Shown here: piece after piece, positions 22,601-51,834 of the stretch
Numbering within the stretch: the first letter of the stretch is position 1
Layout of the letters: every line of letters starts with the position of its first letter
Assembly (NCBI GenBank): GCA_000004985.1
Contig: GG738891.1
DNA from: Naegleria gruberi
Taxonomy: Eukaryota
Strand: one strand, 5' to 3'
Length of the DNA: 64,000 nucleotides
Notes under the pieces: generated by a model
What the model was told of the DNA's origin: nothing
Databases searched by the model: none
The model's input: only the letters and a program-made list of their open reading frames with translations
Translations under genes and position numbers: made by a program

Positions 22601-24540
22601 NNNNNNNNNNNNNNNNNNNNNNNNNNNNNNNNNNNNNNNNNNNNNNNNNNNNNNNNNNNNNNNNNNNNNNNNNNNNNNNNNNNNNNNNNNNNNNNNNNNN
22701 NNNNNNNNNNNNNNNNNNNNNNNNNNNNNNNNNNNNNNNNNNNNNNNNNNNNNNNNNNNNNNNNNNNNNNNNNNNNNNNNNNNNNNNNNNNNNNNNNNNN
22801 NNNNNNNNNNNNNNNNNNNNNNNNNNNNNNNNNNNNNNNNNNNNNNNNNNNNNNNNNNNNNNNNNNNNNNNNNNNNNNNNNNNNNNNNNNNNNNNNNNNN
22901 NNNNNNNNNNNNNNNNNNNNNNNNNNNNNNNNNNNNNNNNNNNNNNNNNNNNNNNNNNNNNNNNNNNNNNNNNNNNNNNNNNNNNNNNNNNNNNNNNNNN
23001 NNNNNNNNNNNNNNNNNNNNNNNNNNNNNNNNNNNNNNNNNNNNNNNNNNNNNNNNNNNNNNNNNNNNNNNNNNNNNNNNNNNNNNNNNNNNNNNNNNNN
23101 NNNNNNNNNNNNNNNNNNNNNNNNNNNNNNNNNNNNNNNNNNNNNNNNNNNNNNNNNNNNNNNNNNNNNNNNNNNNNNNNNNNNNNNNNNNNNNNNNNNN
23201 NNNNNNNNNNNNNNNNNNNNNNNNNNNNNNNNNNNNNNNNNNNNNNNNNNNNNNNNNNNNNNNNNNNNNNNNNNNNNNNNNNNNNNNNNNNNNNNNNNNN
23301 NNNNNNNNNNNNNNNNNNNNNNNNNNNNNNNNNNNNNNNNNNNNNNNNNNNNNNNNNNNNNNNNNNNNNNNNNNNNNNNNNNNNNNNNNNNNNNNNNNNN
23401 NNNNNNNNNNNNNNNNNNNNNNNNNNNNNNNNNNNNNNNNNNNNNNNNNNNNNNNNNNNNNNNNNNNNNNNNNNNNNNNNNNNNNNNNNNNNNNNNNNNN
23501 NNNNNNNNNNNNNNNNNNNNNNNNNNNNNNNNNNNNNNNNNNNNNNNNNNNNNNNNNNNNNNNNNNNNNNNNNNNNNNNNNNNNNNNNNNNNNNNNNNNN
23601 NNNNNNNNNNNNNNNNNNNNNNNNNNNNNNNNNNNNNNNNNNNNNNNNNNNNNNNNNNNNNNNNNNNNNNNNNNNNNNNNNNNNNNNNNNNNNNNNNNNN
23701 NNNNNNNNNNNNNNNNNNNNNNNNNNNNNNNNNNNNNNNNNNNNNNNNNNNNNNNNNNNNNNNNNNNNNNNNNNNNNNNNNNNNNNNNNNNNNNNNNNNN
23801 NNNNNNNNNNNNNNNNNNNNNNNNNNNNNNNNNNNNNNNNNNNNNNNNNNNNNNNNNNNNNNNNNNNNNNNNNNNNNNNNNNNNNNNNNNNNNNNNNNNN
23901 NNNNNNNNNNNNNNNNNNNNNNNNNNNNNNNNNNNNNNNNNNNNNNNNNNNNNNNNNNNNNNNNNNNNNNNNNNNNNNNNNNNNNNNNNNNNNNNNNNNN
24001 NNNNNNNNNNNNNNNNNNNNNNNNNNNNNNNNNNNNNNNNNNNNNNNNNNNNNNNNNNNNNNNNNNNNNNNNNNNNNNNNNNNNNNNNNNNNNNNNNNNN
24101 NNNNNNNNNNNNNNNNNNNNNNNNNNNNNNNNNNNNNNNNNNNNNNNNNNNNNNNNNNNNNNNNNNNNNNNNNNNNNNNNNNNNNNNNNNNNNNNNNNNN
24201 NNNNNNNNNNNNNNNNNNNNNNNNNNNNNNNNNNNNNNNNNNNNNNNNNNNNNNNNNNNNNNNNNNNNNNNNNNNNNNNNNNNNNNNNNNNNNNNNNNNN
24301 NNNNNNNNNNNNNNNNNNNNNNNNNNNNNNNNNNNNNNNNNNNNNNNNNNNNNNNNNNNNNNNNNNNNNNNNNNNNNNNNNNNNNNNNNNNNNNNNNNNN
24401 NNNNNNNNNNNNNNNNNNNNNNNNNNNNNNNNNNNNNNNNNNNNNNNNNNNNNNNNNNNNNNNNNNNNNNNNNNNNNNNNNNNNNNNNNNNNNNNNNNNN
24501 NNNNNNNNNNNNNNNNNNNNNNNNNNNNNNNNNNNNNNNN
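10646..24540. other. Assembly gap (13895 N)
   Basis: N run. It probably hides the 5' ends of the flanking genes, including further EGF repeats of the gene starting at 24541. Confidence 0.95.
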
Positions 24541-27500
24541 AATGTTTTGGATTGAATTCCAGTGATAATTCAGTTTGTTCAAGTCATGGTCAATGTATTA
24601 ATGCTGACACTTGTCAATGTAATACTGGATGGTTTGGAAGTAACTGCTCAATTCACTCCTGCAATGGAACTAGTTCACAAGATTTAAAACACGTCTGCAA
24701 TGGAAATGGAGTATGTATTCAAATGGACAAGTGTGATTGTAATAATGGATGGTTTGGATCTGATTGTTCAATTCATTCTTGTAATGGAACCAGTTCACAA
24801 GATTTACACAGTGTTTGTAATAATGGTAATGGTCAGTGCATTGGAACAGAGTTGTGTTTGTGTAACCAAAATTGGGCTGGTCAGTTCTGTACTATTCCTA
24901 AATGTTTTGGCGTTATTTCTACAGACGCTACAGTTTGCTCTACTCATGGTAATTGTACTGATATTAATACTTGTCAATGTAATACAGGTTGGTTTGGAAC
25001 TGATTGTTCAATTCACTCCTGCAATGGAACTAGTTCACAAGATTTAAAACACGTCTGCAATGAGGAAATGGAGTATGTGTTCAAATGGACAAGTGTGATT
25101 GTAATAAGGGATGGTTTGGATCTGATTGTTCAATTCATTCTTGTAATGGAACCAGTTCACAAGATGAGCAAAATGTTTGTAATGGAGGAAGAGGTCAATG
25201 TATTGGCACTGATATTTGCTCATGTAATGAAACATGGACAGGTCAATTCTGTGAAATTCCAAAATGTTTTGGATTGAATTCCAGTGATAATTCAGTTTGT
25301 TCCAGTCATGGTCAATGTATTAATGCTGACACTTGTCATTGTAATAAGGGATGGTTTGGTAGTAACTGCTCAATTCATTCGTGTAATGGAACTAGTTCAC
25401 AAGATGTGCAAAACGTTTGTAATGGAGGAAATGGTCAGTGCATTGGAACAGATTTGTGTTTGTGTAACCAAAATTGGGCTGGTCAGTTCTGTACTATTCC
25501 TAAATGTTATGGCGTTATTTCTACAGACGCTACAGTTTGCTCTACTCATGGTAACTGTACTGATATTAATACTTGCCAATGTAATACAGGTTGGTTTGGT
25601 CCATTATGTAGTATTCACTCCTGCAATGGAACTAGTTCACAAGATTTAAAACACGTCTGCAATGGTGGTAATGGAGTATGCATTCAAATGGATAAGTGTG
25701 ATTGTAAATCTGGTTGGACAGGCCAGTTCTGTGAAATTCCAACATGTTTCGGATTAGCTTCAACTGCTAAAAAAGTGTGTGCTGGTCATGGAGATTGCAT
25801 GAGCTCTGATAAATGCTCTTGTAATAATGGATGGTTTGGATCTGATTGTTCAATTCATTCTTGTAATGGAACTAGTTCACAAGATGAGCAAAATGTTTGT
25901 AATGGAGGAAGAGGTCAATGTATTGGCACTGATATTTGCTCATGTAATGAAACATGGACAGGTCAATTCTGTGAAATTCCTAAATGTTTTGGATTGAATT
26001 CAAGTGATAATTCAGTTTGTTCCAGTCATGGTCAATGTATTAATGCTAACACTTGTCATTGTAATAAGGGATGGTTTGGTAGTAACTGCTCAATTCATTC
26101 ATGTAATGGAACAAGTTCACAAGATGTACAAAACGTTTGTAATGGAGGAAATGGTGAGTGCATTGGAATAGAGTTGTGTTTGTGTGACCAAAATTGGNNN
26201 NNNNNNNNNNNNNNNNNNNNNNNNNNNNNNNNNNNNNNNNNNNNNNNNNNNNNNNNNNNNNNNNNNNNNNNNNNNNNNNNNNNNNNNNNNNNNNNNNNNN
26301 NNNNNNNNNNNNNNNNNNNNNNNNNNNNNNNNNNNNNNNNNNNNNNNNNNNNNNNNNNNNNNNNNNNNNNNNNNNNNNNNNNNNNNNNNNNNNNNNNNNN
26401 NNNNNNNNNNNNNNNNNNNNNNNNNNNNNNNNNNNNNNNNNNNNNNNNNNNNNNNNNNNNNNNNNNNNNNNNNNNNNNNNNNNNNNNNNNNNNNNNNNNN
26501 NNNNNNNNNNNNNNNNNNNNNNNNNNNNNNNNNNNNNNNNNNNNNNNNNNNNNNNNNNNNNNNNNNNNNNNNNNNNNNNNNNNNNNNNNNNNNNNNNNNN
26601 NNNNNNNNNNNNNNNNNNNNNNNNNNNNNNNNNNNNNNNNNNNNNNNNNNNNNNNNNNNNNNNNNNNNNNNNNNNNNNNNNNNNNNNNNNNNNNNNNNNN
26701 NNNNNNNNNNNNNNNNNNNNNNNNNNNNNNNNNNNNNNNNNNNNNNNNNNNNNNNNNNNNNNNNNNNNNNNNNNNNNNNNNNNNNNNNNNNNNNNNNNNN
26801 NNNNNNNNNNNNNNNNNNNNNNNNNNNNNNNNNNNNNNNNNNNNNNNNNNNAATAATGAAGGAAATGGATTACTGTTCCAAATGACCTCTCCAAATCATT
26901 TCACATCCTTAAATGTTGATTGTAACAATTTATTAGATTCTTCAAGTATTTCCTCATTTGGTTCAAATGTAGTTTGTAGATATTCTAATAAGACATCCAA
27001 TGATTTTATTATTGAATTGGGAACTGATAATTCTATTCAAGTTGATCAAGAAATTTTATTGAATAGAAATGTGTTTAATAGAAACAAATTAGGAAATGAT
27101 TATCAATCATTCAAAATTGGAAATGCTGAAAATCCCATTCCACCAACAATTTTAATTTCTCAAAAAACAACATATTCAAGTTGTGAAAATATTCTATTGG
27201 ATGCAAGTGAAAGTTATTCCACAGATGGAAAACAAATTTCCTATAAATGGGAAATTGTATCTTCCAACATGATGACACTTCCAAACAATAATTCAAGCAA
27301 ACTGTCAATCACCTATGACAGTATAAATGCTGGAAGTCATACTTTCAAATTGACAACTACAAGCCAAATTTTGAAAACATCCTCATCTAAGCAAGTCACA
27401 TTCCAAAAATTGAATTATGCAACACCTGTCATTTCTATTGAAGGAAGTGACAGCCTTTCACTTTCAACAAGCTCATTGCCTTTGATTGTAAGAAAATTAA

Positions 27501-29932
27501 TCACATTACCTTCTTGTTTACCTTCAAAATCTGAAATTATTGTAAAATGGGAATATTTGAGTGGAACTGGAATGGAATATCAAGTTGACTCTTACAATAA
27601 CTTGAAGATTGTTAAATTTAATGATTTGACACAGTTAACACATCAAGTTAAAGTTTCATCATATTTGAAAGGCAAAGAAGATCAAATTTCATCAGTCAAT
27701 CTTAATATCCAAATGACAGCTAGACCACTAGTTGTTAACTTGATCCAAATTGAATCAACAATTGACCAAGTAATAATTGAGATCGAAGAAATTGATTCTG
27801 ATTTGCAAACTATTCCATTCGACAGAGAATGGTCCACCAATAATTTGAATAACAATGACAACATCTTACAATATCTATCATCTATCAAGAATAATACATT
27901 AACAATTACAAAATCATTAGTGAACGGTGCTTCTCAATTCGACATTTCATTAAGGTCAAGTAAGGTTTCCAGATATTCCACTTCAACTCTCTCCATTTTA
28001 TTCCCAGAATCTCCTACACAAATTCCACCTTCAATCACACCAGCTAACTCACCACCATCAAAACTGAATAAGGGAACTTTATTAAGCGTACAAAGTATTG
28101 TTTCGAGTGCAAGTAACAATATTATTAGAGAATGGACAATGAATGGACAATCTATTCCTTCAGATTTGACAAGTAATATGAGAATGCAACTTTCCGAGTC
28201 TGATGAATTAATTTTGGACACATCTTCTTTGACAGAAGGTTCTACTTATCAAATTTCTTTCAAAGTTACTAATGTTGATTCTTTGTTGTCTGCTTCATTG
28301 AATCATTCATTTGTAATTAACAAATCACCAAAACCATGTGACTGTCAAGTGTCACCTTTGAGTGGTATTGCAATGACAACAATATTTACTTTCAATTGTC
28401 CAAAATGTCAAAACGATCAGAATAGTAATACTTTTGAATATGGTTTTATTGATGACTTTTCAAAATCCAACTTTCCACTTTCTAAAACAGAAGAATTATA
28501 TCAAAAACTTCCAATGCCAAATTCTGGAAACAAATTAGATCTTTATGTCAAGGTAATTGATTCATTGACAGGATCTAGCTCCATAACAACCAAACAAGTT
28601 ACCATTTCTCTTCCAGTTGTCAAAAGTTTAGCAGAAATCAAAGCATTAACGTCTTCTTGGAACCAAATAGCAACATTGGCTCCTGTTGGTGATTATCAAC
28701 GAAGTGTTTTCAATACTGCAACCATTTCTAGAACAATGAATTTATTATTTAACAGTATAAGTTCAAAGAGAGATTTTTGTAATGGAAATGGACAATTTAA
28801 GGATGGAAAATGTGTTTGTAATTTTGGATTTACAACAAGAAATTGTAAATGGTCCACTGAAGATTTTGAATTTATTCAATCTTTAATTAGAGATTTATTG
28901 AATGATTTTATGGGTTCAAGTCAAATCATGACAACCGCTTCAGAATCAACAAATAGAAATTACATTACAAATTTATTATTTGGATTGAATTCAATTTCAC
29001 AAAATTCTGAATATCTTTCTAACCAAATGGTCAACTCTAGTTTAATTTTATTGAGAGATGCTTTGGTATCAGTTCAATCAAGTACTGCCTTTGTTCTGTC
29101 TAGAGGAGATTTGGTCAACTTGCAAAATATTTTGAACTTGCAAGAAAATTTAATGGATGGTGAAAAATTATTGCAAACTGTTGAATTATTAGGACAAGTT
29201 TTATTGAGAAATGTTTTAATTGGTCAAACACCATTTAAATTTGAAACTAACAGTTATTTGACAGTTTTAAACAAACATTTCAAGAATCAAATGAATGGAA
29301 TGAAATTCGAAAGTGAGATGGTGAATATCACGTTGCCATGGAACATTTCATCTTTCTTGAAAACTAATTCAATCAAGTCACCAATCAAGTACAGATGGAA
29401 TATTCAAAAAAATACAGACACCATTGCAATTGCAAATCAACCTGGAAAGATAATATCAATCAATTCAGTTGCGAATAGTTTACAACTTGATCCTTCACCT
29501 CAATCTTATTCGAAATACTTATTCGACATTGAGATGAAACAATACGACAGTCAGGCAGCTTATGTTTGTGCCAACATTGGATCAGCATCATTGGAAACTG
29601 ATTGTTCCATTTCTATCAAGAATAACCAAATAGCAACTTGTGAATGCTCTTCATTAGGATATAATCTTGTAATTCTTGAATACAAATCCATTGAAAATCA
29701 TGTATCAACCTCCTCTTCATCAAATTCAAATATAATTGTCAAAAAACCTCCAACGAGCAATCCATTAATGTGGTTATTATTGTTACTAGTCCTCATTCCA
29801 CTTACTGCCCTACTAATTGCAGTAATTGTATGGTTTGTAGTAAAGAAACTGGGTAAAGATAAGAATAATACAAGAAATCCATACATGCAAACACAAGAAA
29901 GCAGTTCTACAATTGAATTGAAGCATGTTTAA
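24541..29932 (+). CDS. Very large EGF-repeat surface protein (5' end in gap). It has tandem tenascin/laminin-type EGF modules, a long Ser/Thr/Asn-rich extracellular region, a membrane-proximal EGF and a GPS-like Cys motif, one C-terminal TM helix and a short cytoplasmic tail
   Basis: The open frame runs from the gap edge. About 12 near-identical EGF units (C-x-C-N-x-G-W-x-G-x-x-C-S-I-H-S-C-N-G-T-S-S-Q-D...) are repeated almost exactly at the DNA level. An apparent frameshift near 25062 (caatgaggaaatgg versus caatggaggaaatgg in sister repeats) splits the track ORFs 10410..25277 and 25085..29932; it is most simply a 1-nt deletion error. An internal gap lies at 26198-26851. After the repeats come CNGNGQFKDGKCVCNFGFTTRNCKW (EGF) and ATCECSSLGYNLVILEY (GPS-like), then the TM helix LMWLLLLLVLIPLTALLIAVIVWFVV, and the stop at 29930-29932. 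Confidence 0.8.
26198..26851. other. Assembly gap (654 N) inside the EGF-repeat gene
   Basis: N run. The reading frame is plausible on both sides of it. Confidence 0.9.
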
Positions 29933-30276: not shown

Positions 30277-32364
30277 ATGTTTCCACAACAAGCTCCACGG
30301 ATTGTGGTAGAGATAAAACTTGGTAACACAGTTGCTCAATTGTTTCCAGATGGTAGCTTGAGTAATGGTTCAACCAGTATTACTGATTTCAGCGCAGTTG
30401 CACTAAACAAGCAAAACAAGCAAGTATGGGGGTTTGAAAATGACAAAGTTAAAATATTGTGCAATCAAAACCACGTTTGTAGTTATGGTCAAGTCAACCA
30501 CTTGATAACAGGCAAGGGATTAAATAGGCTTCGTTCTCTTTACAATCTCGTAATAACAAAATATCTCCAACAACAGCCAAACATCACCGTTCCCAGAACC
30601 AATGCTGGTGACACCACACCAGCAACACATGATGCCTTCCAAAAGAAATTGGCTGAATTAGTTGAAAAATTCAAAACCAAGTATTCGAAACTAAGAGGTG
30701 TAGAATTCATTCAACCTGTTGTGTTTGGATCTTCTGTCCATGGCAGAGAGTTTAATGAAGATACAGTCAAAGATGTTGAAATTGTTACCATTTATGATGC
30801 TCCATCTCTTCATGCTTTACAATATGGAGTGGCTGGTTTGGGAGAAACGTCTTACTATGATGCTCAGTTGGCCTCCCAATATGAGTGTCTCAATATTTAT
30901 GGAGCTGAATGTTGTTTTATTGAAGCAATCAAAACACCATGTGAACATACTTTTGAAGGAATTAGTTATAGTAATGAAAGAAGTGAATGGATTGAACTGC
31001 TAGTTCTTCAATTAAGATTGTTTCCAAACCTCAGACAAATCAGAGTGCTTTGTTGTAAGAAAAACCAAAATATCTTGTTGGGAAATGATATCTTCAATTT
31101 GATTGCTGCCAAGACAGAAGTAATTGTTTTCATGCATTCATCCCCAACAAATGTCATGTACAACCGTTCAGAAATGTTCAATGAGAGAGAAGCAAAAAAG
31201 AAAGAAGGACTACCACAACCATATAGTAAGGACTTTAACTCTTTCGTGACACGTGCCTCACAGTATACAGCTATCAATATTGATTTGAAAAAAGAAAGAT
31301 CTAATATTCAAAACAAGGAACCAAGTGGAAAGAAAACAGATAACACAACCAAGCCACAACCATTTAAATTCGAAAGGTTCTTTTCCTCCAATAAGTGGAA
31401 AGCTCTAGAACCGACTGAAGAGACAAGTAATCTACACAGAGACTGGAACGAAGTGTTTGATTCACGTGAATATAGCACTATCAAGGAATATTGTGATTAT
31501 CTCACTTCAAGACCTGGCCAGTGTCAATTTGATAGTGTATTACTATTGATCAATGAACCAGATAGAAATTTGAGAGAGGAAGTGGCTCAACACATTGAAC
31601 TAAATTGTGATTATTACCAAGAATATATTGATGAACCATTTGAACAATACATTCGTAAAGTTCGTGGAAATGATTGGGGAGATAATATCACACTAAGAGC
31701 TATATCTGAAGTATTAAGTGTGAGAATTATAGTTGTTGATGAGGATGAAGGAACAGATGATGTTGTTTTGGGTCATTTCTTTGAAGAAGAAATTGTTTTA
31801 GGATTTGTCAATCAATCTCATTACATCCCACTGATCAAAAGAGAACACATGCCTACATATCATCATTATGGCACTGCCATTGAACAACAGAGAATGATTT
31901 CTGCTGAACTTACTGATGTTCATGAAACAAGTACTGATGGTGGCCATTACGATTGGCAAACCTCTCAATTACCATCCAACCAATCAACCCAAAATGTTCC
32001 AGATGAAGGCCAAGAAGGCAACTCCAAAGAAGAGAGCTATATTGAGAGAAACCCCCATAAATCACACACACAAAAAAAAAGTTCTAACAGAAATACTAGA
32101 AAGAATCAATTCAATCCTGCTCTTTGTGTATTTATTACCAATCTATCCTATTCATCAACATGGAGAGAAATTAAGGAATTATTTGATGGAGCTACCTATG
32201 TTAAATTATTCAAAAATCAAGATTCTGAACAACACAAAGGATGTGGTTATATTCAATTCAAATCCAAAGAACAGAAAGATGCTGCTTTAAAATTGAAGCA
32301 ACCAATATCACACAATGGAAGAAACATTAAGATAAGAGAATATGAAAAGAGAAACAACAAATAG
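30277..32364 (+). CDS. OTU-domain (ovarian-tumour cysteine protease/deubiquitinase-like) protein with a C-terminal RRM RNA-binding domain
   Basis: A single 695-aa ORF starts with ATG at 30277. The OTU signature reads RPGQCQFDSVLLLI (Cys box) ... GNDWGDNITLRAISEVLSVRIIVV ... NQSHYIPL (His box). The RRM has RNP2 LCVFITNL and RNP1 KGCGYIQF. The N-terminal roughly 330 aa have no recognisable domain. Confidence 0.65.
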   Translation: MFPQQAPRIVVEIKLGNTVAQLFPDGSLSNGSTSITDFSAVALNKQNKQVWGFENDKVKILCNQNHVCSYGQVNHLITGKGLNRLRSLYNLVITKYLQQQPNITVPRTNAGDTTPATHDAFQKKLAELVEKFKTKYSKLRGVEFIQPVVFGSSVHGREFNEDTVKDVEIVTIYDAPSLHALQYGVAGLGETSYYDAQLASQYECLNIYGAECCFIEAIKTPCEHTFEGISYSNERSEWIELLVLQLRLFPNLRQIRVLCCKKNQNILLGNDIFNLIAAKTEVIVFMHSSPTNVMYNRSEMFNEREAKKKEGLPQPYSKDFNSFVTRASQYTAINIDLKKERSNIQNKEPSGKKTDNTTKPQPFKFERFFSSNKWKALEPTEETSNLHRDWNEVFDSREYSTIKEYCDYLTSRPGQCQFDSVLLLINEPDRNLREEVAQHIELNCDYYQEYIDEPFEQYIRKVRGNDWGDNITLRAISEVLSVRIIVVDEDEGTDDVVLGHFFEEEIVLGFVNQSHYIPLIKREHMPTYHHYGTAIEQQRMISAELTDVHETSTDGGHYDWQTSQLPSNQSTQNVPDEGQEGNSKEESYIERNPHKSHTQKKSSNRNTRKNQFNPALCVFITNLSYSSTWREIKELFDGATYVKLFKNQDSEQHKGCGYIQFKSKEQKDAALKLKQPISHNGRNIKIREYEKRNNK

Positions 32365-34416: not shown

Positions 34417-36201
34417 ATGAATATTTTAAAAAGTAATATTGTCGTGATGATGATGGTGATGATGATATTTGGACTGCTGTTCATGACATTGGGAACGTGG
34501 TGTGCTAATACGGTAGAGTTTGGACGTTACTATCCTATTGAACCATTATCTGAAGAATTGTTTTATAAGGATTTATCTCTGCCTCAAGTGAGTGTCACGA
34601 TTCAGTATAGAAAAGATCTTGTCGTGTCTAGTGGACAAATAATGCTTGATAGAAATTTGATTGTTACTGATAGAGTGTTGAACAGTTCGAATTTTGTTGA
34701 TTCTTCACAATTGAAATATGAAAGTATGAAATTATTAGCCATTTACGAGTTGGATTTGGCTCGATTGACTGCCGTATCCGATATTGAACAAGAAGAATTG
34801 ACAAGTATCATGTACATTACTATTCAGTGGACAAGTCCACTCATGAACACAAATCCCGAATCAATGATTCCATTAATTTTGAATGAAAACTATGATAGAG
34901 CAATTGTTCCATCAAATGTCTCTAAAATTCTCGGAGAACCATCAAGTGTGGAATTTAATGTGGAATCTATTGAGAATTATCTTGGAAAGAAGAGATTAGT
35001 TTTTGCTTTGGGAGGTTATTCTAAACCTATTGATGCTGTTTTTGGGACTACGTACGAAGTTGAAGAATTTCCAAGAAGTTTCTTATTCAAAAATCAATTG
35101 AGAGATTCGTCCCAGTATTTACAAATTGAAATGAACAAACCAGAATTGGTCCAATCCTTCTCTGTAGAAATGTACAATGAAAAGGAATCTGTAGTATCTG
35201 GATTATTGAACTCTAATTATACTACACTTTATATTTTGAATGTGAATCAACAAATGTTTGGAGGAAAGAAGATTTTTTACTATAATAGAAAGAAGGCCAT
35301 AAGAGATATTGATGATAAGTTGGTAATCATCAAACCAGATACTGTCAAATTATTTTTTAGAACTGTTGATGGATCATTTAAAGGAGTTTGGTCGAGTTCA
35401 ACAACTACTGTCACTTGTCCAGAGTATGGAACTTACACGTGTACAGCCTCAAGTGAATTACCAATCTATGACACAACAGAAGTAGGAATTGTGGCAGAAA
35501 TTGATGTGGAAGCAACTAAATTAATTATTGAAAATGGAAATTCAACTGATAATTCAACAATGGCTACAAATCTTTTGGATGGAACATTTATTAATTATCA
35601 ACCAATTTCTTCAACTATTCAACCACATTATCAAGTAGTTTTGGATGGATTTCAAATTTTGAAATTGAAAGATGTCAAAATTTCAGGTAGCTCCACTTCC
35701 AAAGTTGTGGTTTATCAATCAAATGGCACTCCATTCCCAAATGCCACAATGTATGACAACCGATATGAATTTTCATCATCTGACACTTCTAAATCGATTG
35801 AATTGAAACATAGAAGTTTTTCCAAAGCCACTTACTATCTCAGAATAGTCAACCTTGATGAATCTCAACCAGACAACACTTGTTATATTACATTTTCTGT
35901 ATCTGTCGCTTCATTTACAGATGACAAGATTACTCCAGAAGATAATGGCCCAATTTATCCATATATTTTCATTGGAGTATTTGGTGGAATAGTTGCAATT
36001 TTGATTTTCATTTCAGTTGTTTATATTTTATGGAAGAAGACCAAGAAACCTAAAAGAACTATGTCTAACAAACAATTCCCATCTGTCTCCTCTCAAATGT
36101 CAATTCAAAGCGAACAAATTATTTCAAATACTCCAAGTGCTGTAGGTTTAGATATTGAACAAGGTAATCAATCAACTCAATATTATAGAATGAATGAATA
36201 A
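34417..36201 (+). CDS. Type I membrane glycoprotein of unknown function (signal peptide, about 500-aa N-glycosylation-rich ectodomain, one TM helix, short tail)
   Basis: 594-aa ORF, ATG at 34417. The hydrophobic N-terminus is MMMVMMIFGLLFMTLGTWC. There are many N-x-S/T sites. The C-terminal TM helix is IYPYIFIGVFGGIVAILIFISVVYILW, followed by a KKTKKPKR stop-transfer and a Ser/Gln-rich tail. Confidence 0.55.
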   Translation: MNILKSNIVVMMMVMMIFGLLFMTLGTWCANTVEFGRYYPIEPLSEELFYKDLSLPQVSVTIQYRKDLVVSSGQIMLDRNLIVTDRVLNSSNFVDSSQLKYESMKLLAIYELDLARLTAVSDIEQEELTSIMYITIQWTSPLMNTNPESMIPLILNENYDRAIVPSNVSKILGEPSSVEFNVESIENYLGKKRLVFALGGYSKPIDAVFGTTYEVEEFPRSFLFKNQLRDSSQYLQIEMNKPELVQSFSVEMYNEKESVVSGLLNSNYTTLYILNVNQQMFGGKKIFYYNRKKAIRDIDDKLVIIKPDTVKLFFRTVDGSFKGVWSSSTTTVTCPEYGTYTCTASSELPIYDTTEVGIVAEIDVEATKLIIENGNSTDNSTMATNLLDGTFINYQPISSTIQPHYQVVLDGFQILKLKDVKISGSSTSKVVVYQSNGTPFPNATMYDNRYEFSSSDTSKSIELKHRSFSKATYYLRIVNLDESQPDNTCYITFSVSVASFTDDKITPEDNGPIYPYIFIGVFGGIVAILIFISVVYILWKKTKKPKRTMSNKQFPSVSSQMSIQSEQIISNTPSAVGLDIEQGNQSTQYYRMNE

Positions 36202-36205
36202 AATT

Positions 36206-37149
36206 TTAATGTAAAATTGAAATGAGTAACATCATGACACTAATCAACATTGCATTCCAAATTTGTTGAACTGCAAAACTGACAGCTGGTATTTGAGTAA
36301 AGGTTCCAAAATTTTGCACATCTCCAAACATTTTAATATAACATCCACTACAGTTGGCCTTATGTTGACCTAACCATCTAGTAGTATCAAAGAAATCACC
36401 AAAAAAGGCATGTGCAGTATTATTCAAAATCATGTCCCATCCTTCATCATATCCTGGAATTTTAACAATTCTTGCATTCTTAAAATTGGCTAATAACCAA
36501 GCTTCATAGGTTGTACCTGTTGGAACAACTACAGTATACTTGGTAGTGTCTAATTGCGACACATCAGTAATCGTTGTATCATTTTGATAGGTATTTCTCA
36601 AGAAACTCTTTGAACCCATTCCATATGGACCTTAATTATCGTTGTAAATTGAAAAAATCATAATTCACTAAACTTACATTGGAAATGAACAACTTTAGCT
36701 CTGTCAGCGTTATGATTAGTGGCAGCAATAGCAACATCACATTCTCCACTTTGAACTCTTTCATTCAATGATGAGAAATATCCTGTAGATGTATCATAGG
36801 TAGTAATCACATAGGTCAGATTTAACTTGTATTGTTCATTCAAAGTACTAGTCAACATCTTTGAGGCTGACAAGTGATAGGTCACCCAAGGTTCTCCTGC
36901 CTCCTTGTCATAACAATAATTGATAACAGATTTGTTAAAAGCAAAGTAAGATGGAAAGGTTGGCTCACTTGAACAGTCTGGCAATAAAGTTGGGAGAAAG
37001 GCCTTTGCTAATGTGTTTGCCCACTCTGTAGTTCTAATATATTTGAAAGTTGCTGCGTCAATGGCTTGGACAAAGAGAGGATCCGCTAAACCGTGGACTG
37101 TGTATGTGGAAAGAAAGAGAATGAGAAAGATGACTGAGATTAGTTTCAT
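36206..37149 (-). CDS. Secreted, probably GPI-anchored, bacterial-type solute-binding protein family 3 (amino-acid-binding / iGluR-LBD-like). Two exons
   Basis: Exon 1 spans 37149..36678 and carries a signal peptide MKLISVIFLILFLSTYTVHG. It ends ...SGECDVAIAATNHNADRAKVVHFQ, the SBP_bac_3 hinge motif G-x-x-D-x-A-I-A-x-x-T-x-x-x-x-R-x-K-V-x-x-F. A 47-nt intron (about 36677..36631) runs from GTAAGT to AG and joins phase 1 in frame. Exon 2 spans about 36630..36206 and reads CPYGMGSKSFL...VVVPTGTTYEAWLLANFKNARIVKIPGYDEGWDMILNNTAHAFFGDFFDT... It ends in a hydrophobic tail (NAMLISVMMLLISILH) typical of a GPI signal. Track ORFs 36658..37149 and 36206..36619 are the two exons. Confidence 0.65.
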
Positions 37150-40614: not shown

Positions 40615-42809
40615 ATGGATTCGCCCTTCTTTTCATCATCCCTTTCCCAGATGATATCGAAAAATGAACAATTACATCAACAACAACATTCTATGAGAAA
40701 CAACAATAACAATAATACTACTAACAGCATACTGAATAATAGTAATAATAATAATAATAATTGGAATGCTAATAATTTGATGAATCAATTTTCGGTCAAT
40801 CAAAATAGCCTTCAACAAAATCAACAACAACAGTTAGTCATTCCTTCCTTTAGTGATTTACTTTCAATGGGTAGTAATAATAATATAATGTCGAGTAGTA
40901 GTAATAACATGTTCATTAGTCAAATGTCAACAAATAATAGTAATAATAATGTAAATCTTGGCAGAAGAGCAAGTGTAGTTTCGAATAGTAGTAATACGAA
41001 TATGAATAATAACATTGGTAGTAGCAGTGCACCACAAGTACTTTCTTCTTCATCTTCTACGAATAGTAATGAAGCAACTAGCTCTTTTCAAGTTTCGAAT
41101 AATGCAACTGGAGAAGAATCATCACAGTTTCACCCAATTTCGTGTATTAACTGCAGAAAGGTACACAAAAAGTGCGATAAACAATTGCCTAGTTGTGCCA
41201 AATGTGTAGCTAAAGGAGCCACTTGTATAGTAAGTAATTAGTTCAATTGTTTCCATTCTATAAGAAATATTAGTATGAAAATCCAAAGAAAAGAGGAAAA
41301 GGGTCATTAGCTTACCCACACAAAAAGAAGAAACTTGATATTGTTCAACAAGAGGATGATGCCACGACCACTGTTATTCATCAAGAAAGTCCTTCTGCTG
41401 CAAACAAATCTCAGAGTGGATCTAGCTCAACAATTCAAAGTAATCAACTATATTCATTGAGAGTAGTGAATTTAGTGGAATTGTACTTTACTTTTATTTG
41501 TGCTGGACATCCATTCATTAGAAAGGCCAAGTTGGAGTATTTCATTAATAACTTTTTGATTTATTTTGAAAATGAGGTGAACATTGATCAGATTCATTTT
41601 GCTCCAAATGAATTCATTGAAAGCATTGGAGAATTGAAATGTATATATGCATTTTACTTGTCAGTACTGGCACTAGGTCATCAATTATTGGCAAATACAG
41701 AAACATCAGATGGAATTGCTAAACTATGTGAAGTTGAAATTGCAAAATTATCAATTGAATATTATTTGAATTTCTATTGGGCTTGCTCCACATTCCATCT
41801 CTGTATTTATTATAATGGAAGTGGCGTGCTTCAAAAAGCAAGATATTATGTTAGATTTGCTGATTTTTATTGTTTAGAATTCCCTAACATGACAGATATT
41901 ATTCAAAAAAATCTAGTCAAGAGGAAAGTCTTCTCAGTTGGGTATTATGGAGATTCTATCAATGAATTTGCAGTATTTTTCAAAAACATGCCAAATGTAT
42001 TTGAAATTACATCAAATCTCAAGTTGGAAAATATAGTTCTCCCAAATACATTAGAGTATTTACAATCAGCAAACGTTACTCCACAGAATTTCTTACTTTT
42101 CAGACAAGTGATTGATTTTTCTTTTGCAGTCACTACTCAATACAGAACAGAGCTAATGAAAAAGATGACAGATTGCCACTCCCCTCTATTTTTCACTGGA
42201 CAAATAGTTTTGAGATTAATGGTAATGAATGGCTTTAAGCTTTTATTCCTTTTAAAGGTTCCAGAGCATGCCAAACAGATGGCTGAAGAGGTGGCACTCA
42301 GAATTACCTTATTGGCAGATCATGATGTTTTCACATATGCTAATGGAGATGTTTCAATTAGTATCAAGACTGCCTCACGATTCCATTTGGATATTTGTAA
42401 AGATATTGAAGAAGGAAAGAGAACGAATAATGCAACATTGAAAACATCCAACGGAAAGGGATTGAATGTTGACTATTTTTCAATTTTGGAAAAGAATCTC
42501 AAAGCAATGAAAATTCATACCAAGAAATACGTACGTGTTCGCAATGAATGCAGTGGAATGATGAAAGAAATGGAGGAAATGTTGGAAAGACATAGACAGC
42601 GAAGAAATTTAGCAATTACTTTGGATAATCATTGCCAATCATGGATAAGTCAGGGCGATCAGTTCCCAGACCAACAAGATCCTGTTTTGTCATCTGTACT
42701 GACCTACCTCAATGAATTGAATCAACAAATGCCAAAGCAAATGACAACAACACCTCAGGAAGAATTTGATTCAGAATGGAGAGATATTTTTACTGATTCT
42801 CTTCTCTAA
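40615..42809 (+). CDS. Zn(II)2Cys6 binuclear-cluster DNA-binding protein (Gal4-type) with a long C-terminal regulatory region; two exons
   Basis: Exon 1 spans 40615..41229. It has an Asn/Ser-rich N-terminus and then CINCRKVHKKCDKQLPSCAKCVAKGATCI (C-x2-C-x6-C-x6-C-x2-C-x6-C). A 44-nt intron (41230 GTAAGT ... AG 41273) sits in phase 0. Exon 2 spans 41274..42809 and continues YENPKKRGKGSLAYPHKKKK... A basic linker after the cluster is typical of this family. Track ORFs 40615..41241 and 41457..42809 are parts of it. Confidence 0.7.
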
Positions 42810-46468: not shown

Positions 46469-47980
46469 TTATTCTTTCACATTGTCAAAATCCTTGATAG
46501 AATAAATGGAACAAGTATCTAATATGAAATCTCGCATGTAGAGAAAGTTTTTAGCATATTTTAGGCATTTCTTATTGATTCGAATAGCCTTTCTTATAAA
46601 TGCCTCGTTAGTCGAATAATCTGATTCAATTAAGGAAATGGCAAAGTCGTCATCGTTCTTGATTGCTTCCAACATGATATCTTCATCACATCTTGCTTTT
46701 TCTAACTCTTCATATCTCAATGAATGAAATTTCGTCAAGTTTCTAATTTTTCCATAAATAACTTCCTTTGACGAACCAATCGATTGGTGTTTTCTCATCC
46801 AAAAATCAATTCCAACACGTGGAATCCAAATATCTTGTTCATTATCTACTTGTTGTGGAAGATTAGTTGTCAGTTGTTGTTGAACTTGAAGAGAAGCAAA
46901 TTTCAAAGCATCTAGATTTTGGTCAACTGCACTTTTTACAATATCATAATCTGATTTGAATTTCTCAAGAGTAAATTCTAAAGCAAGAGGGTGGTTTCTA
47001 ATAGCTGTTAAATTAATGAGCTCGCTGTCTAGAAGAGGAGGTTTAACAAACTCTAACGCTCGTCCGTCTTGGTTGACTGCGATCATTACAATTGTTTCGT
47101 TGAAACTCTTGATGGAATCATGAGCATATTCTAATTCTAACCCATTTTTCTTGACCAGTTCAGTGACGATGAGTTCATTATTATTGTGAGCTTTCAGATA
47201 TTTTAGAAATTTCGGATAAACTTTCTTCTTGATGCAATTCAATACGAAATTCACTTCCTTCACTAGAGGAGTAATTTCCAGAATGGAAGGTTCTTTCAAT
47301 ACAGCTCTAGTGACTAATTCTTCATTAGTTTTCAATGAAACATCCACAAATCTAATGCAGTTTCCATTTAGTTTTACACATTTCAAAGCAAAATCAAAGT
47401 TTCGTCTCAAATCTTCATGAGCAAATGTCAAATTTACAGGTTTAATCTTCACTGCCTCATAAATCATCTGCTCATCCCTACAAAACTCTTCATTCATTTC
47501 GAATATTTCCTTAACTAATTCTCCTCCACCACTTTCCAAAGCTTTCAATGCAACTATTCGATTCTTCTTTAATTTTTCACTCAAAAATCTATACGAATCA
47601 CCCTCACTCTTCACAGCAGCCAACCCAAACTCAAAATCATCTTTAAACTCAACTGGCATTTCTCTAATAAACAACCCAAATTGACCCAAACATTCCTTTA
47701 TAAAAATTCGATCCGTTATCAAATCTTGTGGAATTTTCTTCATCAAATACTTGGGTCCATATATTCTAGTGAGAGAAAACGCCAAAATCTTTGTGTATTT
47801 CATGGTTTGTAGTTCGTGTGATGATTGTTGGAAAACTGATCGGAGGAGAAAACTCTTGAAAGTTTGATCGAGAATGAGTTGAACGGAAGTTTCGTCCAAA
47901 TCATCTTCTTGATGTGAAATCATTTTTTTTGAAGCTTGAATTTGTTGAATTAAACACGGTGTTATTAGTTGGACTAACAT
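46469..47980 (-). CDS. DUF4116-repeat protein
   Basis: 503-aa ORF with ATG at 47980. It contains repeated about 35-aa units of the DUF4116 type: FEFGLAAVKSEGDSYRFLSEKLKKNRIVALKALESGG, FDFALKCVKLNGNCIRFVDVSLKTNEELVTRAVLKEP, and IVMIAVNQDGRALEFVKPPLLDSELINLTAIRNHPLALEF...YDIVKSAVDQNLDALKFASLQ. Confidence 0.5.
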   Translation of the reverse strand: MLVQLITPCLIQQIQASKKMISHQEDDLDETSVQLILDQTFKSFLLRSVFQQSSHELQTMKYTKILAFSLTRIYGPKYLMKKIPQDLITDRIFIKECLGQFGLFIREMPVEFKDDFEFGLAAVKSEGDSYRFLSEKLKKNRIVALKALESGGGELVKEIFEMNEEFCRDEQMIYEAVKIKPVNLTFAHEDLRRNFDFALKCVKLNGNCIRFVDVSLKTNEELVTRAVLKEPSILEITPLVKEVNFVLNCIKKKVYPKFLKYLKAHNNNELIVTELVKKNGLELEYAHDSIKSFNETIVMIAVNQDGRALEFVKPPLLDSELINLTAIRNHPLALEFTLEKFKSDYDIVKSAVDQNLDALKFASLQVQQQLTTNLPQQVDNEQDIWIPRVGIDFWMRKHQSIGSSKEVIYGKIRNLTKFHSLRYEELEKARCDEDIMLEAIKNDDDFAISLIESDYSTNEAFIRKAIRINKKCLKYAKNFLYMRDFILDTCSIYSIKDFDNVKE

Positions 47981-49023: not shown

Positions 49024-51834
49024 ATGAATGAACAGGAACCGATTCTCTCCACCACAGGTCGTCTCGCCAATGCTCCCTACAAAATCTTCGATTGGGATCA
49101 AGAGGAGCCTCCTCTCTCTCGTGAAAAAGCCATTGAAAATCTAATGCAAGCGGAATATTACAACTACACTGTTGAGGAGATTATCGAGGAAGGTATTGAT
49201 CCAAATGAATATGGAAGGGCAAGGTTTATTTCCGAAGCCTTGATCATGATGGAAAATACGGGTGATGATGAGAAGGAAAATCAAGTAAAAAAACAACCAT
49301 CAACAATAAGAAGAGAAGATGATGATGAACCAAAGTTTTGGAGGAGAAGGGACTTGTTGATTCCTGGACAATCAATTCAAATTCCTTCAAAGATTACGAC
49401 AGTGCACTTGTTGAAGGAAAAACCGATTGAACATCAAGAGAAAAGTGGTGATGATTATGATAATGATTATGAGGAAGATAATGAGGAAAAGGAAAGCCAG
49501 GATGTTGAAACAATTATCAATCAAGATCGTTGTATTTATATTGGAAGTTTACTATCCCGAACAGAATGTAGTGATTTGATTGATTCCACATCAAGATTGG
49601 GATATGCAGAAATTGATAAGGAATATCCAAAGGAATATCGTAATAGTGAGAGAGTTTTGGTCAAGAGTAAGAAACTTGCGGACATGATTTGGTCTCGAAT
49701 TGTTCCATTCTTGAAAAAGTCTGATATTGATGGTGTGAAACCTTATGGTTTTGATAATGATGGTTGTTGGGTTCCTTGTGGAATTAATGAAGTATTGAGA
49801 TTCAACAAGTATAGTCGTGGAACTTTCTTTAAACCTCACACTGATGCTCAATTCGTTAGAAATGATAATGAAAAATCAATCTTCACAGTGTTGGTCTATT
49901 TGAGCGACTCTTCTGCAGCTACAACCCTTCTGAAAAAGGTTGGAGAGAAGATTGAGGATGATAGTATTTCCTTTGATTTCAAAAAGTTGGCATCCATCAA
50001 ACCAACAGAAGGAAGTGTTGGTAAGTTGAATAGATTAATGATTCTAAATAATAATTTAAAGCTATTTTTAACCATGATCTCTATCATGACGGCCAAAAAC
50101 TATACTATGGATCAAAGTATGTTGTGAGAAGTGAAATCATCTTCAAGAGAATTGATAAGGATAGCATTTATAGAATGGATTATAGAAATAGTGAAGAATT
50201 CAAACGAGTAAAGAACCTCATTGATGATAGCTACGAGTTGGAACGTCAAGGTAATTTAACTCAATCCACCATCAAATATATCCAAGCTATGGACTTGCAG
50301 ACATCCTTGTCCCACTCCATTCAAAGAAAATCAAATAGAAAATTGAGTTTTATTGAAGAAAATCTTCCTGAAGAGGTATTCGTTCACATATTTAACTATT
50401 TAACGGATGAAGAAGTTTGTACGAGTGTCATTCCTATCAATTCTGAAATTAATTCAATTGCTAGAAATGAAACCATGTGGGAACAAAGATTTTCAAAAAA
50501 GTGGGGATCTGAAACAATGGAAAAGTCAATTCTTGATAGAGTCATTAGATATGAATATGATGAAAATTATGAACCTACAAATGAAGAGAAGATTGAATTT
50601 CATAGTAAGGAAAATGAAATTATCAATCTTCTTCAAAAAGATACTCACGATTGGTATAATGCATTTTCTTGCAGATCAAATATGGAAAAATCTTTCAATG
50701 CTGTACTTTTAGATCTTGGGCAGCATACTTACAAGTATGGATTAGCAAGTAATAATGCCTATTGGAGATCAATGACAGCTGTCGGTGAACCTAATCATCC
50801 TCACTTTTATTTACCATCCTATGGATTTGACGATGTTATAACAGGAGATAGATTTGTTCAAGCTCAATACCATTGTAGATTGAACAAGTTCTTTAACTCT
50901 AAAGGAGTACCCAAGAAGAAACTGCTCAAAATTTTCCTTTATCAGCTCTATAAGGAAGATTTAAGAGTTAACTTACAAGAACACCCTCTTCTTATGGCTG
51001 TGCCTCCTCACTGGGATAAGGAATACTTGAAAAAGGTGGAACAGGTTGCAGTAAGTTCTCTATATTGCAAATTATATTTAATTTCATTGATAGTTTTCTT
51101 TAGGTATTCCAGCAGTTCACTTTGTGGACTCGTTCAAGCTACTTGCATTGTATTATCAAAAACCAACATCCTTAATTATTAGTGCAACACCAAATGGATC
51201 GACATGTGTACCAGTCATAGATTGTGAGTCTAAGACTGCATGTATGGATATGAATGTGTTTAACATGTACGAGGAGTATAGGAATATGAATGAAGATATG
51301 CGCTATTATGAAATGACTTTCAGAGAGGAAGTATCAGAATTTTTGAAAATTGCCCCTTGCAGTCCGAGCCAAGATCAAAAAGAATTTAATGAATTTGTAC
51401 AAAACCTTGAACCTTTCGAATGGACTTCATACATGGTTTCACCAATCAATGAAAGAGCCAATATTTCGGAAATTTTCTACTCTCATGTATGGGAAAATGT
51501 CCAAAAATCAATCACCTTAATTCGAAATAATCAATCTCTTTCCAATATTGAAAAAGATCAAATTCTAAACAATATTTTAATTGTAGGTGGATTCTCAGCA
51601 TTAACAGGATTTAGAGAAAGAATTAAGAAGGACATTTTGGAATATCTTGGACAAGAATACTCTCCATCATTTACTTTTAGAGAACAGAAGGCTGATTATT
51701 CTGTCAGAAAAACAGGTATCAAGGTCAGCATTGTTGGACAAGATATGGACGTAGTTGGAGGAGCTAGAATTGTTTCCAATCTCTCAAACTTTAGAGAAAT
51801 TTGTAGTTACAATCAAGCATATAACAAGTATTAA
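49024..51834 (+). CDS. Composite ORF of at least 3 exons: prolyl-4-hydroxylase-like 2OG-Fe(II) oxygenase domain, then an F-box motif, then a divergent actin-related protein (Arp)
   Basis: Exon 1 (49024..50020) carries P4Hc-like RCIYIGSLLSRTECSDLI ... and an HxD motif, FKPHTDAQF. A 41-nt intron (GTAAGT 50021 ... AG 50061) in phase 1 restores the second-His region, AIFNHDLYHDGQKLYYGSKYVVRSEIIF. The same frame then continues with no stop for about 1.1 kb. It passes through an F-box (LPEEVFVHIFNYLTDEEVCTSVIPINSEINSIARNETMWEQRFSKKW). It then enters the actin-fold N-terminus (NAVLLDLGQHTYKYGLASNNAYWRSMTAVGEP ... EHPLLMAVPPHWDKEYLKKVEQVAV). After a third intron near 51041-51104 the actin fold continues in track ORF 51124..51834: IPAVHFVDSFKLLALYYQK ... 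ILIVGGFSALTGFRERIKKDI ... VSIVGQDMDVVGGARIVSNLSNF. The obvious GTAAGT donor of that intron is out of phase by 1 nt. A GT 4 nt downstream (a|GTTCTC, about a 49-nt intron) would restore the frame. Confidence 0.55.

Follow-up and report, generated by a model that had tools for sequence, protein, structure and literature searches.

A predicted GPI-anchored surface protein of Naegleria gruberi belongs to a family of circularly permuted, bacterial-type binding domains

The gene NAEGRDRAFT_80943 of the amoeba Naegleria gruberi lies on the minus strand of a 64,000-nucleotide stretch of contig GG738891.1 (assembly GCA_000004985.1), which was analyzed as a whole and is called the window below. Its product combines a signal peptide, a bacterial-type binding domain of solute-binding protein family 3 and a C-terminal tail resembling a glycosylphosphatidylinositol (GPI) attachment signal. 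Two open reading frames (ORFs) of 163 and 137 amino acids (37149-36206) fuse in frame once a 47-nt segment is removed, and the spliced coding sequence of 897 nt yields a product of 298 residues that agrees at every position with N. gruberi XP_002673364.1 (D2VR69_NAEGR, “hypothetical protein”); the public gene model therefore uses the same 47-nt intron. The original prediction, made from the letters alone, had placed the two-exon gene correctly; the gene family, the receptor-kinase relatives, and the circular permutation described below were not part of it. No paper naming the gene was found; literature coverage was limited, here and in the searches mentioned below. In the following list, conservation refers to A1, a 27-member alignment of the family, and helices refer to an AlphaFold2 model, with confidence as predicted local distance difference test (pLDDT).

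36206..37149, minus strand: whole gene NAEGRDRAFT_80943, two exons, 298-residue product (spliced translation)
37149-36678, minus strand: exon 1
36630-36206, minus strand: exon 2, including the TAA stop
36631..36677, minus strand: spliceosomal intron, 47 nt, phase 1, inside the Cys158 codon (HFQ/C), GT..AG ends
37090..37149, minus strand: predicted signal peptide, residues 1-20, MKLISVIFLILFLSTYTVHG, with a Kyte-Doolittle core of >2 and the small residues V-H-G at -3/-1
36991..37089, minus strand: N-terminal two-helix segment, residues 21-53, the probable permuted element; modeled helices 24-37 and 41-49, pLDDT 92-97
36928..36990, minus strand: linker, residues 54-74, probably joining the old C-terminus to the old N-terminus; Cys59 in 26/27 and Pro66 in 27/27 members of A1
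36287..36927 (intron included), minus strand: binding-protein core, residues 75-272, both lobes; Foldseek matches to GlnBP, AncQR, ArgBP and the AvGluR1 ligand-binding domain
36209..36286, minus strand: GPI-attachment-like signal, residues 273-298, with Ser273 as candidate omega site, spacer VQQIWN and tail AMLISVMMLLISILH

The intron (36677-36631, GTAAGT...TTAAG, 21% GC) cuts the Cys158 codon after its first base. Its spliceosomal character, claimed earlier, is borne out by the GT..AG ends and by the Naegleria lovaniensis paralogue P0007 (41% identical), which has an intron of 188 nt at the same codon and in the same phase. Read-through of this intron also leaves its signature, a terminal ...HFQC[KR], in several environmental ORF fragments. 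The Naegleria fowleri family member P0013 (L003 10001-13515, VFQX01000013.1) lacks it. An environmental Naegleria contig carries the same locus at 98.6% identity over 3 kb: the coding sequences differ at 8 sites, 7 of them synonymous and 1 nonsynonymous (0.9%), and the intron differs at 4 of 47 positions (8.5%), as would be expected if purifying selection acts on the coding sequence and the intron is a true one.

Taken singly, the protein is a modest match to its domain family. Pfam SBP_bac_3 (PF00497) aligns to residues 123-171 only, just under its cut-off (25.7 against 26.4 bits; E = 1.1e-5), and Lig_chan-Glu_bd gives E = 0.16; the models TIGR01096 (E = 5.9e-9) and GlnH (E = 1.4e-5) also match, and a phmmer search of PDB returned solved opine-, glutamine-, and arginine-binding proteins (best E = 1.8e-5). 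The A1 profile reached much further into PDB (AncCDT-1, 9e-23; a glutamate binder, 2e-16; bacterial GluR0 [Slr1257], ∼1e-6), hhalign aligned the family profile with Escherichia coli GlnBP at 96% probability (E = 1.4e-9), and 14 of the 27 members of A1 match SBP_bac_3 individually (best E = 4.7e-13). The AlphaFold2 model built with A1 (pLDDT 90.3; predicted template-modeling score 0.82) found ligand-bound bacterial Trp-, Gln-, Arg-, and Cys-binding proteins as its best Foldseek matches (E ∼3e-13 to 1e-11), and all of the top 50 PDB matches (E 3e-13 to 5e-11) were family-3 binders, dehydratase derivatives, or ligand-binding domains of ionotropic glutamate receptors (iGluRs), among them that of the rotifer AvGluR1 (1.4e-11). 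GlnBP fits the model better in its closed form (1wdn, template-modeling score 0.68) than in its open form (1ggg, 0.46). On the sequence and model evidence, the similarity is genuine, weak when judged from this one sequence but beyond doubt at the family level, and the model indicates a two-lobed type II periplasmic-binding-protein fold. The profile search proposed with the original prediction has thus upheld its assignment of the protein body to SBP_bac_3, the fold of the iGluR ligand-binding core. The assignment itself is not new: the protein is public as hypothetical, and N. lovaniensis relatives are automatically named [quoted passage not shown]

An iGluR fragment was considered and rejected. 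No Pfam match to Lig_chan, ANF_receptor, or Peripla_BP was found in the protein, the only hydrophobic segments are the two terminal ones, and the domain is continuous. The fold class is shared with the iGluR ligand-binding domain (S1S2), including that of bacterial GluR0, and the Arg/Thr/acidic ligand clamp is analogous; in contrast to iGluRs, however, no pore domain splits it in two, and its sequence lies nearer to those of bacterial binding proteins than to those of iGluRs from eukaryotes.

Several observations point to a circular permutation of this domain. First, the canonical order, in which a C-terminal helix pair (...N.AL..L...G.Y..I..KWF) follows the core, is not seen: the mature C-terminus comes directly after the last beta-strand, no helices follow this strand in the family, and the modeled helices 24-37 and 41-49 equal the bacterial pair in length. 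Matches of bacterial proteins to the family hidden Markov model (HMM) are confined to its middle part (positions ∼129-255; 20 to 76 bits), whereas those of eukaryote-type proteins run from the N-terminus onward (98 to 162 bits). Similar N-terminal segments, LTSVLNAAIDDMWSDGDIDAIYSEWF in a Cavostelium kinase and LRTAISAALKEVMANSEWDTIYYKWF in an environmental protein, resemble the C-terminal pair of GlnBP.

Second, a profile of the N-terminal segment alone (35 columns, 23 family members), searched against all 177,635 PDB sequences, found almost only family-3 binders and always their extreme C-terminus. This holds for all 16 matches at E<1, for example, 5eyf (residues 209-236 of 245; E = 4.2e-6), 6h30 (2e-5), 8b5e (194-223 of 225; 1.6e-3), and HisJ (203-231 of 238; 0.19).

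Third, moving the segment to the C-terminus improves the match to canonical models. For the environmental protein P0070, the TIGR01096 score rose from 63.5 to 79.4 bits, with coverage extended from 36-220 to 36-250 of 250, and the GlnH score rose from 54.5 to 68.4 bits. The kinase P0101 gained as well (32.8 to 39.1 bits), with coverage reaching 250 of 250. In native form, residues 2-32 of P0101 match GlnH model positions 214-244, and residues 23-57 of the GPI-tailed P0110 match EhuB model positions 234-268 of 275. The clade closest to the N. gruberi protein was examined with native and de-permuted profiles of 16 Naegleria-type sequences against PDB. The de-permuted profile ran colinearly into the C-terminal helices of family-3 binders, with gains for 4zv1 (51.9 to 59.8 bits; coverage 58-190 to 58-229 of 233), 5eyf (49.9 to 51.7 bits; coverage to 234 of 245), and 4i62 (39.0 to 42.4 bits).

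Fourth, the segments can be linked stepwise by hhalign: those of the Naegleria clade align in register with those of other eukaryotes (P = 2.4e-8), those of other eukaryotes align with the bacterial C-terminal helices (P = 5e-13), and the Naegleria clade aligns with the bacterial helices directly (P = 2.2e-4). Among the matches of an exhaustive database search (described below), the segment precedes the core in 56 and clearly follows it only in P0118, a canonical prokaryotic protein. The N. gruberi protein has all features of its clade, i.e., the N-terminal helix pair, the Cys/Pro linker, and a core with Cys137, Cys158, and C-x-x-C.

Two null results stand on the other side: the Naegleria-clade segment alone gave no meaningful match in PDB, and de-permuting the N. 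gruberi protein alone left its score at 36.3 bits both ways. The score of N. lovaniensis P0007 was likewise unchanged when that protein was de-permuted alone. Because these single-protein tests are null, the permutation reaches the N. gruberi protein through the family links and the modest gains of the clade profile. We therefore regard circular permutation as strongly supported for the clade and the wider family and, transitively, for this protein. Tandem binding domains exist in bacteria, e.g., 6h30, which makes partial deletion of a tandem duplicate a plausible origin. In the literature, no natural circular permutation of this fold was found, only engineered sensors built with circularly permuted green fluorescent protein.

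The ligand pocket was placed in register by hhalign to an E. coli GlnBP sequence that was checked against the published residues D10, F13, F50, G68, T70, R75, K115, T118, G119, H156, and D157. The roles of GlnBP Phe50, Arg75, Thr118, and Asp157 in ligand binding are established structural knowledge, and each has an equivalent:

residue Phe125: equivalent of GlnBP Phe50, which stacks on the ligand; aromatic in 25/27 members of A1
36700..36702, minus strand: codon of Arg150, equivalent of GlnBP Arg75, which binds the alpha-carboxylate; 27/27 members of A1
residue Thr197: equivalent of GlnBP Thr118, a ligand-backbone contact; Thr/Ser in 25/27 members of A1
36395..36397, minus strand: codon of Asp236, equivalent of GlnBP Asp157, which binds the alpha-ammonium; Asp/Glu in 23/27 members of A1

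The motif GECDVAIAATNHNADRAKVVHF at residues 135-156, earlier called a hinge motif, is present, but it is mainly the ligand-binding strand-loop-helix of lobe 1 carrying Arg150, and only its end, HFQCPYG, is hinge. Paralogues differ from one another at the positions facing the side chain of the ligand (143-145, 194, 198, and 235). Such a combination of conserved and variable positions suggests that they share a class of ligands, alpha-amino acids or similar carboxylates, but have differing specificities.

The protein shares the two-lobed type II fold and the equivalents of these four residues with bacterial PAAT/family-3 binders (GlnBP/GlnH, HisJ, LAO, and ArtJ). It differs from them in the permuted chain, with the C-terminal helices at the N-terminus, and in its six conserved cysteines, sequons, eukaryotic signal peptide, intron, and GPI-like tail. 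A further difference is that no ATP-binding cassette (ABC) importer partner is encoded near the gene or the paralogues examined.

Signal peptide and GPI signal were judged by rule of thumb. The signal peptide of the original prediction is present, with n, h, and c regions, a hydrophobic core, and V-H-G before a predicted cleavage between MKLISVIFLILFLSTYTVHG and LADP. The six cysteines (59, 79, 137, 158, 251, and 254), each conserved in 23 to 27 of 27 members and absent from E. coli GlnBP, and the five N-x-S/T sequons are, as sequence features, typical of a secretory-pathway protein. The GPI-like hydrophobic tail is also present: Ser273-Phe-Ala and VQQIWN are followed by AMLISVMMLLISILH (26 residues in all), and the last 15 residues, which end the protein, are strongly hydrophobic (Kyte-Doolittle 2.4). 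An equivalent tail recurs in 39 of 68 family representatives, the remainder being mostly fragments broken at introns. An omega-like triplet of small residues lies 17 to 31 residues from the end in 38 of the 39, and 22 have no charged residue in the last 20 amino acids. The tail is conserved as a feature and not in sequence, as expected of a processing signal. From this layout we infer GPI anchoring at approximately Ser273. Evidence of GPI-anchored proteins in Naegleria genomes has been reported (PMC9928731), and nothing was found in the literature on a Naegleria GPI transamidase.

Such rule-of-thumb prediction counts against certainty on this point, as a short membrane anchor at the C-terminus could account for the tail as well. 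The stretch would then be retained as a membrane-spanning segment of a type I protein with essentially no cytoplasmic tail, and two observations are consistent with this: AlphaFold2 models residues 273-297 as a helix, and related proteins, such as the Cavostelium kinase, use true transmembrane helices. However, the uninterrupted hydrophobic run is only ∼14 to 15 residues long and the protein ends one residue later. There is no basic stop-transfer cluster, unlike the KRRR that follows the transmembrane segment of the Cavostelium protein, the family tails are often uncharged as described above, and a Ser/Gly/Ala/Asn-rich run precedes the tail in 38 of 39. A retained membrane anchor in place of GPI is consequently unlikely.

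P0118 also ends in a candidate anchoring signal. This protein, the best scoring of the prokaryotic matches compared with the family HMM, is a non-permuted family-3 binder (TIGR01096, 170 bits) with an F-S-C-P-Y motif and a PGF-CTERM-like tail (SSPGFEWMVPIVVLLPLALGTMVIRRRK). PGF-CTERM is an archaeal-type C-terminal lipid-anchoring signal, and P0118 therefore provides a prokaryotic parallel to the GPI tail.

Word-indexed homology searches found only the gene itself and one relative, and the family surfaced only with an exhaustive HMMER search of 1.84 billion representatives, which gave 116 matches, 59 of them at E<1e-10; the family thus comprises at least 59 sequence clusters. Members occur in N. 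gruberi (a second gene, XP_002676195), N. lovaniensis, N. fowleri, and Willaertia magna; a more distant relative occurs in Heterolobosea sp. BB2, and many others come from environmental eukaryotic contigs. Full-length members are 280 to 340 amino acids long, with an N-terminal hydrophobic signal, the binding domain, and a terminal hydrophobic tail; nearly all have the signal peptide and the GPI-like tail. Paralogues are 25 to 40% identical in A1 and are dispersed: no other member was found in the window, and no tandem arrays were found at three other loci. Two neighbors of members were recorded. A 742-residue protein adjoins N. fowleri P0013 and has a NIT (nitrate/nitrite-sensing) domain, likewise an extracellular sensor module of bacterial type, and a kinase/histidine-kinase hybrid of 1,858 residues (protein kinase, AAA_16, TPR, GAF, HisKA, and HATPase_c domains) lies near the GPI-tailed P0110 (L005 1457-7033, Ga0606064_0079).

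The same module is found in other amoebae as part of receptor kinases. Related proteins run into a protein kinase in Cavostelium apophysatum (EP01114_P015199, 673 amino acids), in the environmental P0101 (667 amino acids), and in Nematostelium gracile (EP01118_P003916, 540 amino acids). The first two have a permuted ectodomain (SBP_bac_3, 1e-14 to 4e-15), a Ser/Pro-rich stalk, a transmembrane helix, and a Tyr/Ser-Thr-type kinase. The Nematostelium protein, truncated at the N-terminus, scores ∼100 bits with the family HMM and has no Pfam SBP_bac_3 match. The Cavostelium protein and P0101 share with the N. gruberi protein the N-terminal helix pair, the Cys linker, and the F-[ST]-C-x-Y and C-x-x-C core, at an identity of ∼25%, and score 98 to 101 bits with the family HMM, compared to 20 to 76 bits for prokaryotic proteins. 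The chain after the core is different: the amoebozoan proteins continue into stalk, transmembrane helix, and kinase, and the Naegleria protein continues into the GPI-like signal. With the ectodomain fused to a transmembrane helix and a kinase, the module serves as a receptor ectodomain in these amoebae. This ectodomain is unmentioned in a survey of protist transmembrane kinases (PMC10463195). In a further environmental sequence (L006 10001-11997, SRR10663366), the ectodomain ORF P0078 is followed on the same strand by a kinase ORF 129 nt downstream, and the two are probably a single receptor-kinase gene divided by an intron.

The best prokaryotic match to the N. gruberi protein among the 1.84 billion representatives is at ∼1e-6 and covers the core only, the gene is host-like in composition and has an intron in common with divergent paralogues, and variosean amoebozoans and unidentified eukaryotes have the permuted order as heteroloboseans do. 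These observations fit an old lineage of the fold within eukaryotes, with either one ancient acquisition followed by permutation or later spread from eukaryote to eukaryote. The ancient horizontal acquisition suggested by the original prediction may have taken place, as it is consistent with the remoteness of bacterial matches. A bacterial-type “PBPb” gene is reported to have become common to Euglena and several algae through transfer (PMC2064935), which we cite only as a case of such genes moving among protists. Nothing was found in the literature on Naegleria solute-binding proteins or iGluRs.

The closest architectural parallel is EhVFT of Entamoeba histolytica, a stand-alone Venus flytrap that is GPI anchored, has no transmembrane domain, and has been shown experimentally at the cell surface; its knockdown lowers motility and phagocytosis (PLoS Pathog 2026, PMC12965686). 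EhVFT and the N. gruberi protein have in common a signal peptide, a stand-alone flytrap, a C-terminal GPI signal (putative in N. gruberi), the lack of a cytoplasmic domain, and a retained amino-acid-binding motif. EhVFT is a type I module (LIVBP/ANF-receptor/class C G-protein-coupled receptor-like), whereas the N. gruberi protein is type II, family 3, and the likeness is therefore architectural rather than familial. EhVFT is also single copy in Entamoeba (Amoebozoa), with no permutation reported (PMC12965686), in contrast to the large, permuted family in Heterolobosea (Discoba). Unlike EhVFT, the GPI-tailed stand-alone module described here is type II, permuted, multigene, and linked to receptor kinases.

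We propose, with a probability of roughly 0.5, that the N. gruberi protein is a GPI-anchored cell-surface ligand sensor or coreceptor built on the permuted family-3 domain; the proposal draws on sequence, structure models, and analogy. After cleavage of the signal peptide, the protein would enter the secretory pathway and fold as a two-lobed Venus flytrap (family 3, type II, polar-amino-acid class) with three probable disulfides and N-glycosylation. A GPI anchor added at approximately Ser273 would hold it at the outer leaflet of the plasma membrane, and the permutation would let the chain leave the domain after the last beta-strand and pass straight into the membrane tether. Phe125, Arg150, Thr197, and Asp236 would hold an amino acid by its alpha-carboxylate and alpha-amino groups. 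Each paralogue may bind a particular amino acid or small carboxylate, upon which the lobes would close and a signal would be passed to a transmembrane partner. The family would then form an extracellular chemosensory coreceptor set for finding prey or nutrients. Analogues of the signaling step are bacterial binding proteins that dock on chemoreceptors or sensor kinases and animal GPI-anchored coreceptors.

Some points weigh against this sensor reading. The equivalent of GlnBP Thr70 is Asn in the N. gruberi protein and is variable in the family. No conserved neighbor and no candidate transmembrane partner was found beside the family loci examined. Further, EhVFT bound none of the ligands tried (PMC12965686), and a retained pocket is therefore no guarantee of a simple ligand.

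A sensor is not the only use to which such a protein could be put. As a nutrient-capture receptor, it would concentrate amino acids or another small nutrient at the surface, to be endocytosed or handed to a permease with no signaling. Pocket conservation applies equally to this function, the protein is GPI tailed with no cytoplasmic part, the paralogue set is large and diversified, and the closest bacterial relatives are transport binding proteins; trypanosomes, which also belong to Discoba, use GPI-anchored nutrient receptors. However, the output domains fused to the module in relatives are kinases and not transporters, no permease or ABC gene was found beside any family member examined, and eukaryotic carriers normally take up free amino acids without a binding protein. 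We consider nutrient capture a minority possibility and prefer a sensing role, mainly because relatives use the module as a receptor ectodomain.

Loss of small-molecule binding is less probable still. The protein might now serve in adhesion or as a variable, abundant part of the surface coat, or it might have turned into an enzyme comparable to cyclohexadienyl dehydratase, itself derived from this class of binding proteins. The family is large and fast diverging, as in protist surface-coat families, with the low paralogue identity given above, and cyclohexadienyl dehydratases are among the sequence and structure matches of the protein and its family. However, the residues that are kept, Arg150 without exception and Thr/Ser197, Asp/Glu236, and Phe125 in most members, are precisely those that contact the ligand backbone, which a pure coat protein would have no reason to keep, and the best structural matches are binders rather than dehydratases. 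These alternatives are improbable.

The name of the domain family is bacterial, as are its best-known members. Even so, both a contaminated assembly, against which the original prediction had argued from the intron and flanking genes, and a recent horizontal transfer out of bacteria are rejected as extremely improbable: the spliceosomal intron is kept in a paralogue of another species, the gene lies in gap-free sequence between eukaryotic genes, its GC content (36%), GC at third codon positions (30%), and codon use (r = 0.75 against pooled neighbors) are all neighbor-like, the same locus recurs in an independent environmental Naegleria contig, the best bacterial match is remote and confined to the core, and the permuted order occurs among the matches only in eukaryote-type proteins.

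The window is AT-rich eukaryotic DNA of ∼32% GC with assembly gaps seen as runs of N at 1635-9763, 10646-24540, and 26198-26851 and as 50-nt runs at 735, 54087, and 62349. Very long listed “ORFs” (up to 4,955 amino acids) span these gaps and were discarded as artifacts. The segment 26852-54086 is gap free and contains NAEGRDRAFT_80943 together with OTU+RRM, Sel1/TPR, alpha/beta-hydrolase, Zn2Cys6, DUF4116-repeat, and START genes; the ORF at 30277-32364 is identical to XP_002673296.1. Among ∼20 neighboring ORFs in the window and beside paralogues in three other genomes, no domain of an ABC permease or ATPase was found.

The immediate neighbor, convergent with the gene (34417-36201, plus strand), encodes a 594-residue protein with a signal peptide, one transmembrane helix near the C-terminus, and no Pfam match. 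Its stop codon (36199-36201, plus strand) lies 4 nt from that of NAEGRDRAFT_80943 (36206-36208, minus strand), so that the 3′ ends of the two genes must overlap or share a very short terminator region. No homologue of this neighbor was found beside the family paralogues examined. Four other loci of the window were recorded:

25085-29932, plus strand: large ORF with REJ (polycystin-1-type, E = 3e-24), PKD-like, and EGF-like domains and an assembly gap inside; a polycystin-like surface protein in Naegleria
40615-41241, plus strand: 208-residue ORF ending in a fungal-type Zn(2)-Cys(6) binuclear cluster domain (E = 1e-7), probably continuing past an intron into the ORF at 41457-42809
46469-47980, minus strand: 503-residue protein with seven DUF4116 repeats (E = 9e-53)
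50124-51834, plus strand: two overlapping ORFs with weak F-box-like and Actin matches (N- and C-terminal parts of the actin model), possibly a single F-box/actin-related gene broken by an intron or frameshift

The means by which amoebae detect prey and nutrients are poorly understood, and Naegleria, the genus of the lethal N. fowleri, has few known surface receptors. The locus points to a large uncharacterized family whose members probably bind ligands at the cell surface and whose pocket can be read from the sequence, which makes direct ligand screening on recombinant ectodomains possible. As GPI-anchored EhVFT controls motility and phagocytosis, the coreceptor hypothesis is approachable by the methods used for that protein. 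Given the family's connection with receptor kinases of other amoebae, a single sensing module may have been coupled to different outputs. The permutation would be a natural one in one of the best-studied binding folds, placing the chain exit beside the membrane tether, and, as a rare change, it can be used as a character to trace the origin of the eukaryotic clade. More tentatively, and with doubt prevailing, the permuted family-3 domain may be a eukaryote-specific receptor module of deep age, present in Discoba and Amoebozoa and possibly dating from near the eukaryote root, i.e., a third lineage of chemoreceptors derived from binding proteins beside iGluRs and the G-protein-coupled receptors of class C. 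If so, the module would be deployed as a GPI-anchored coreceptor in Naegleria and as a kinase fusion in variosean amoebae, and amoebae including the pathogenic N. fowleri would use it to sense amino acids from prey or host tissue.

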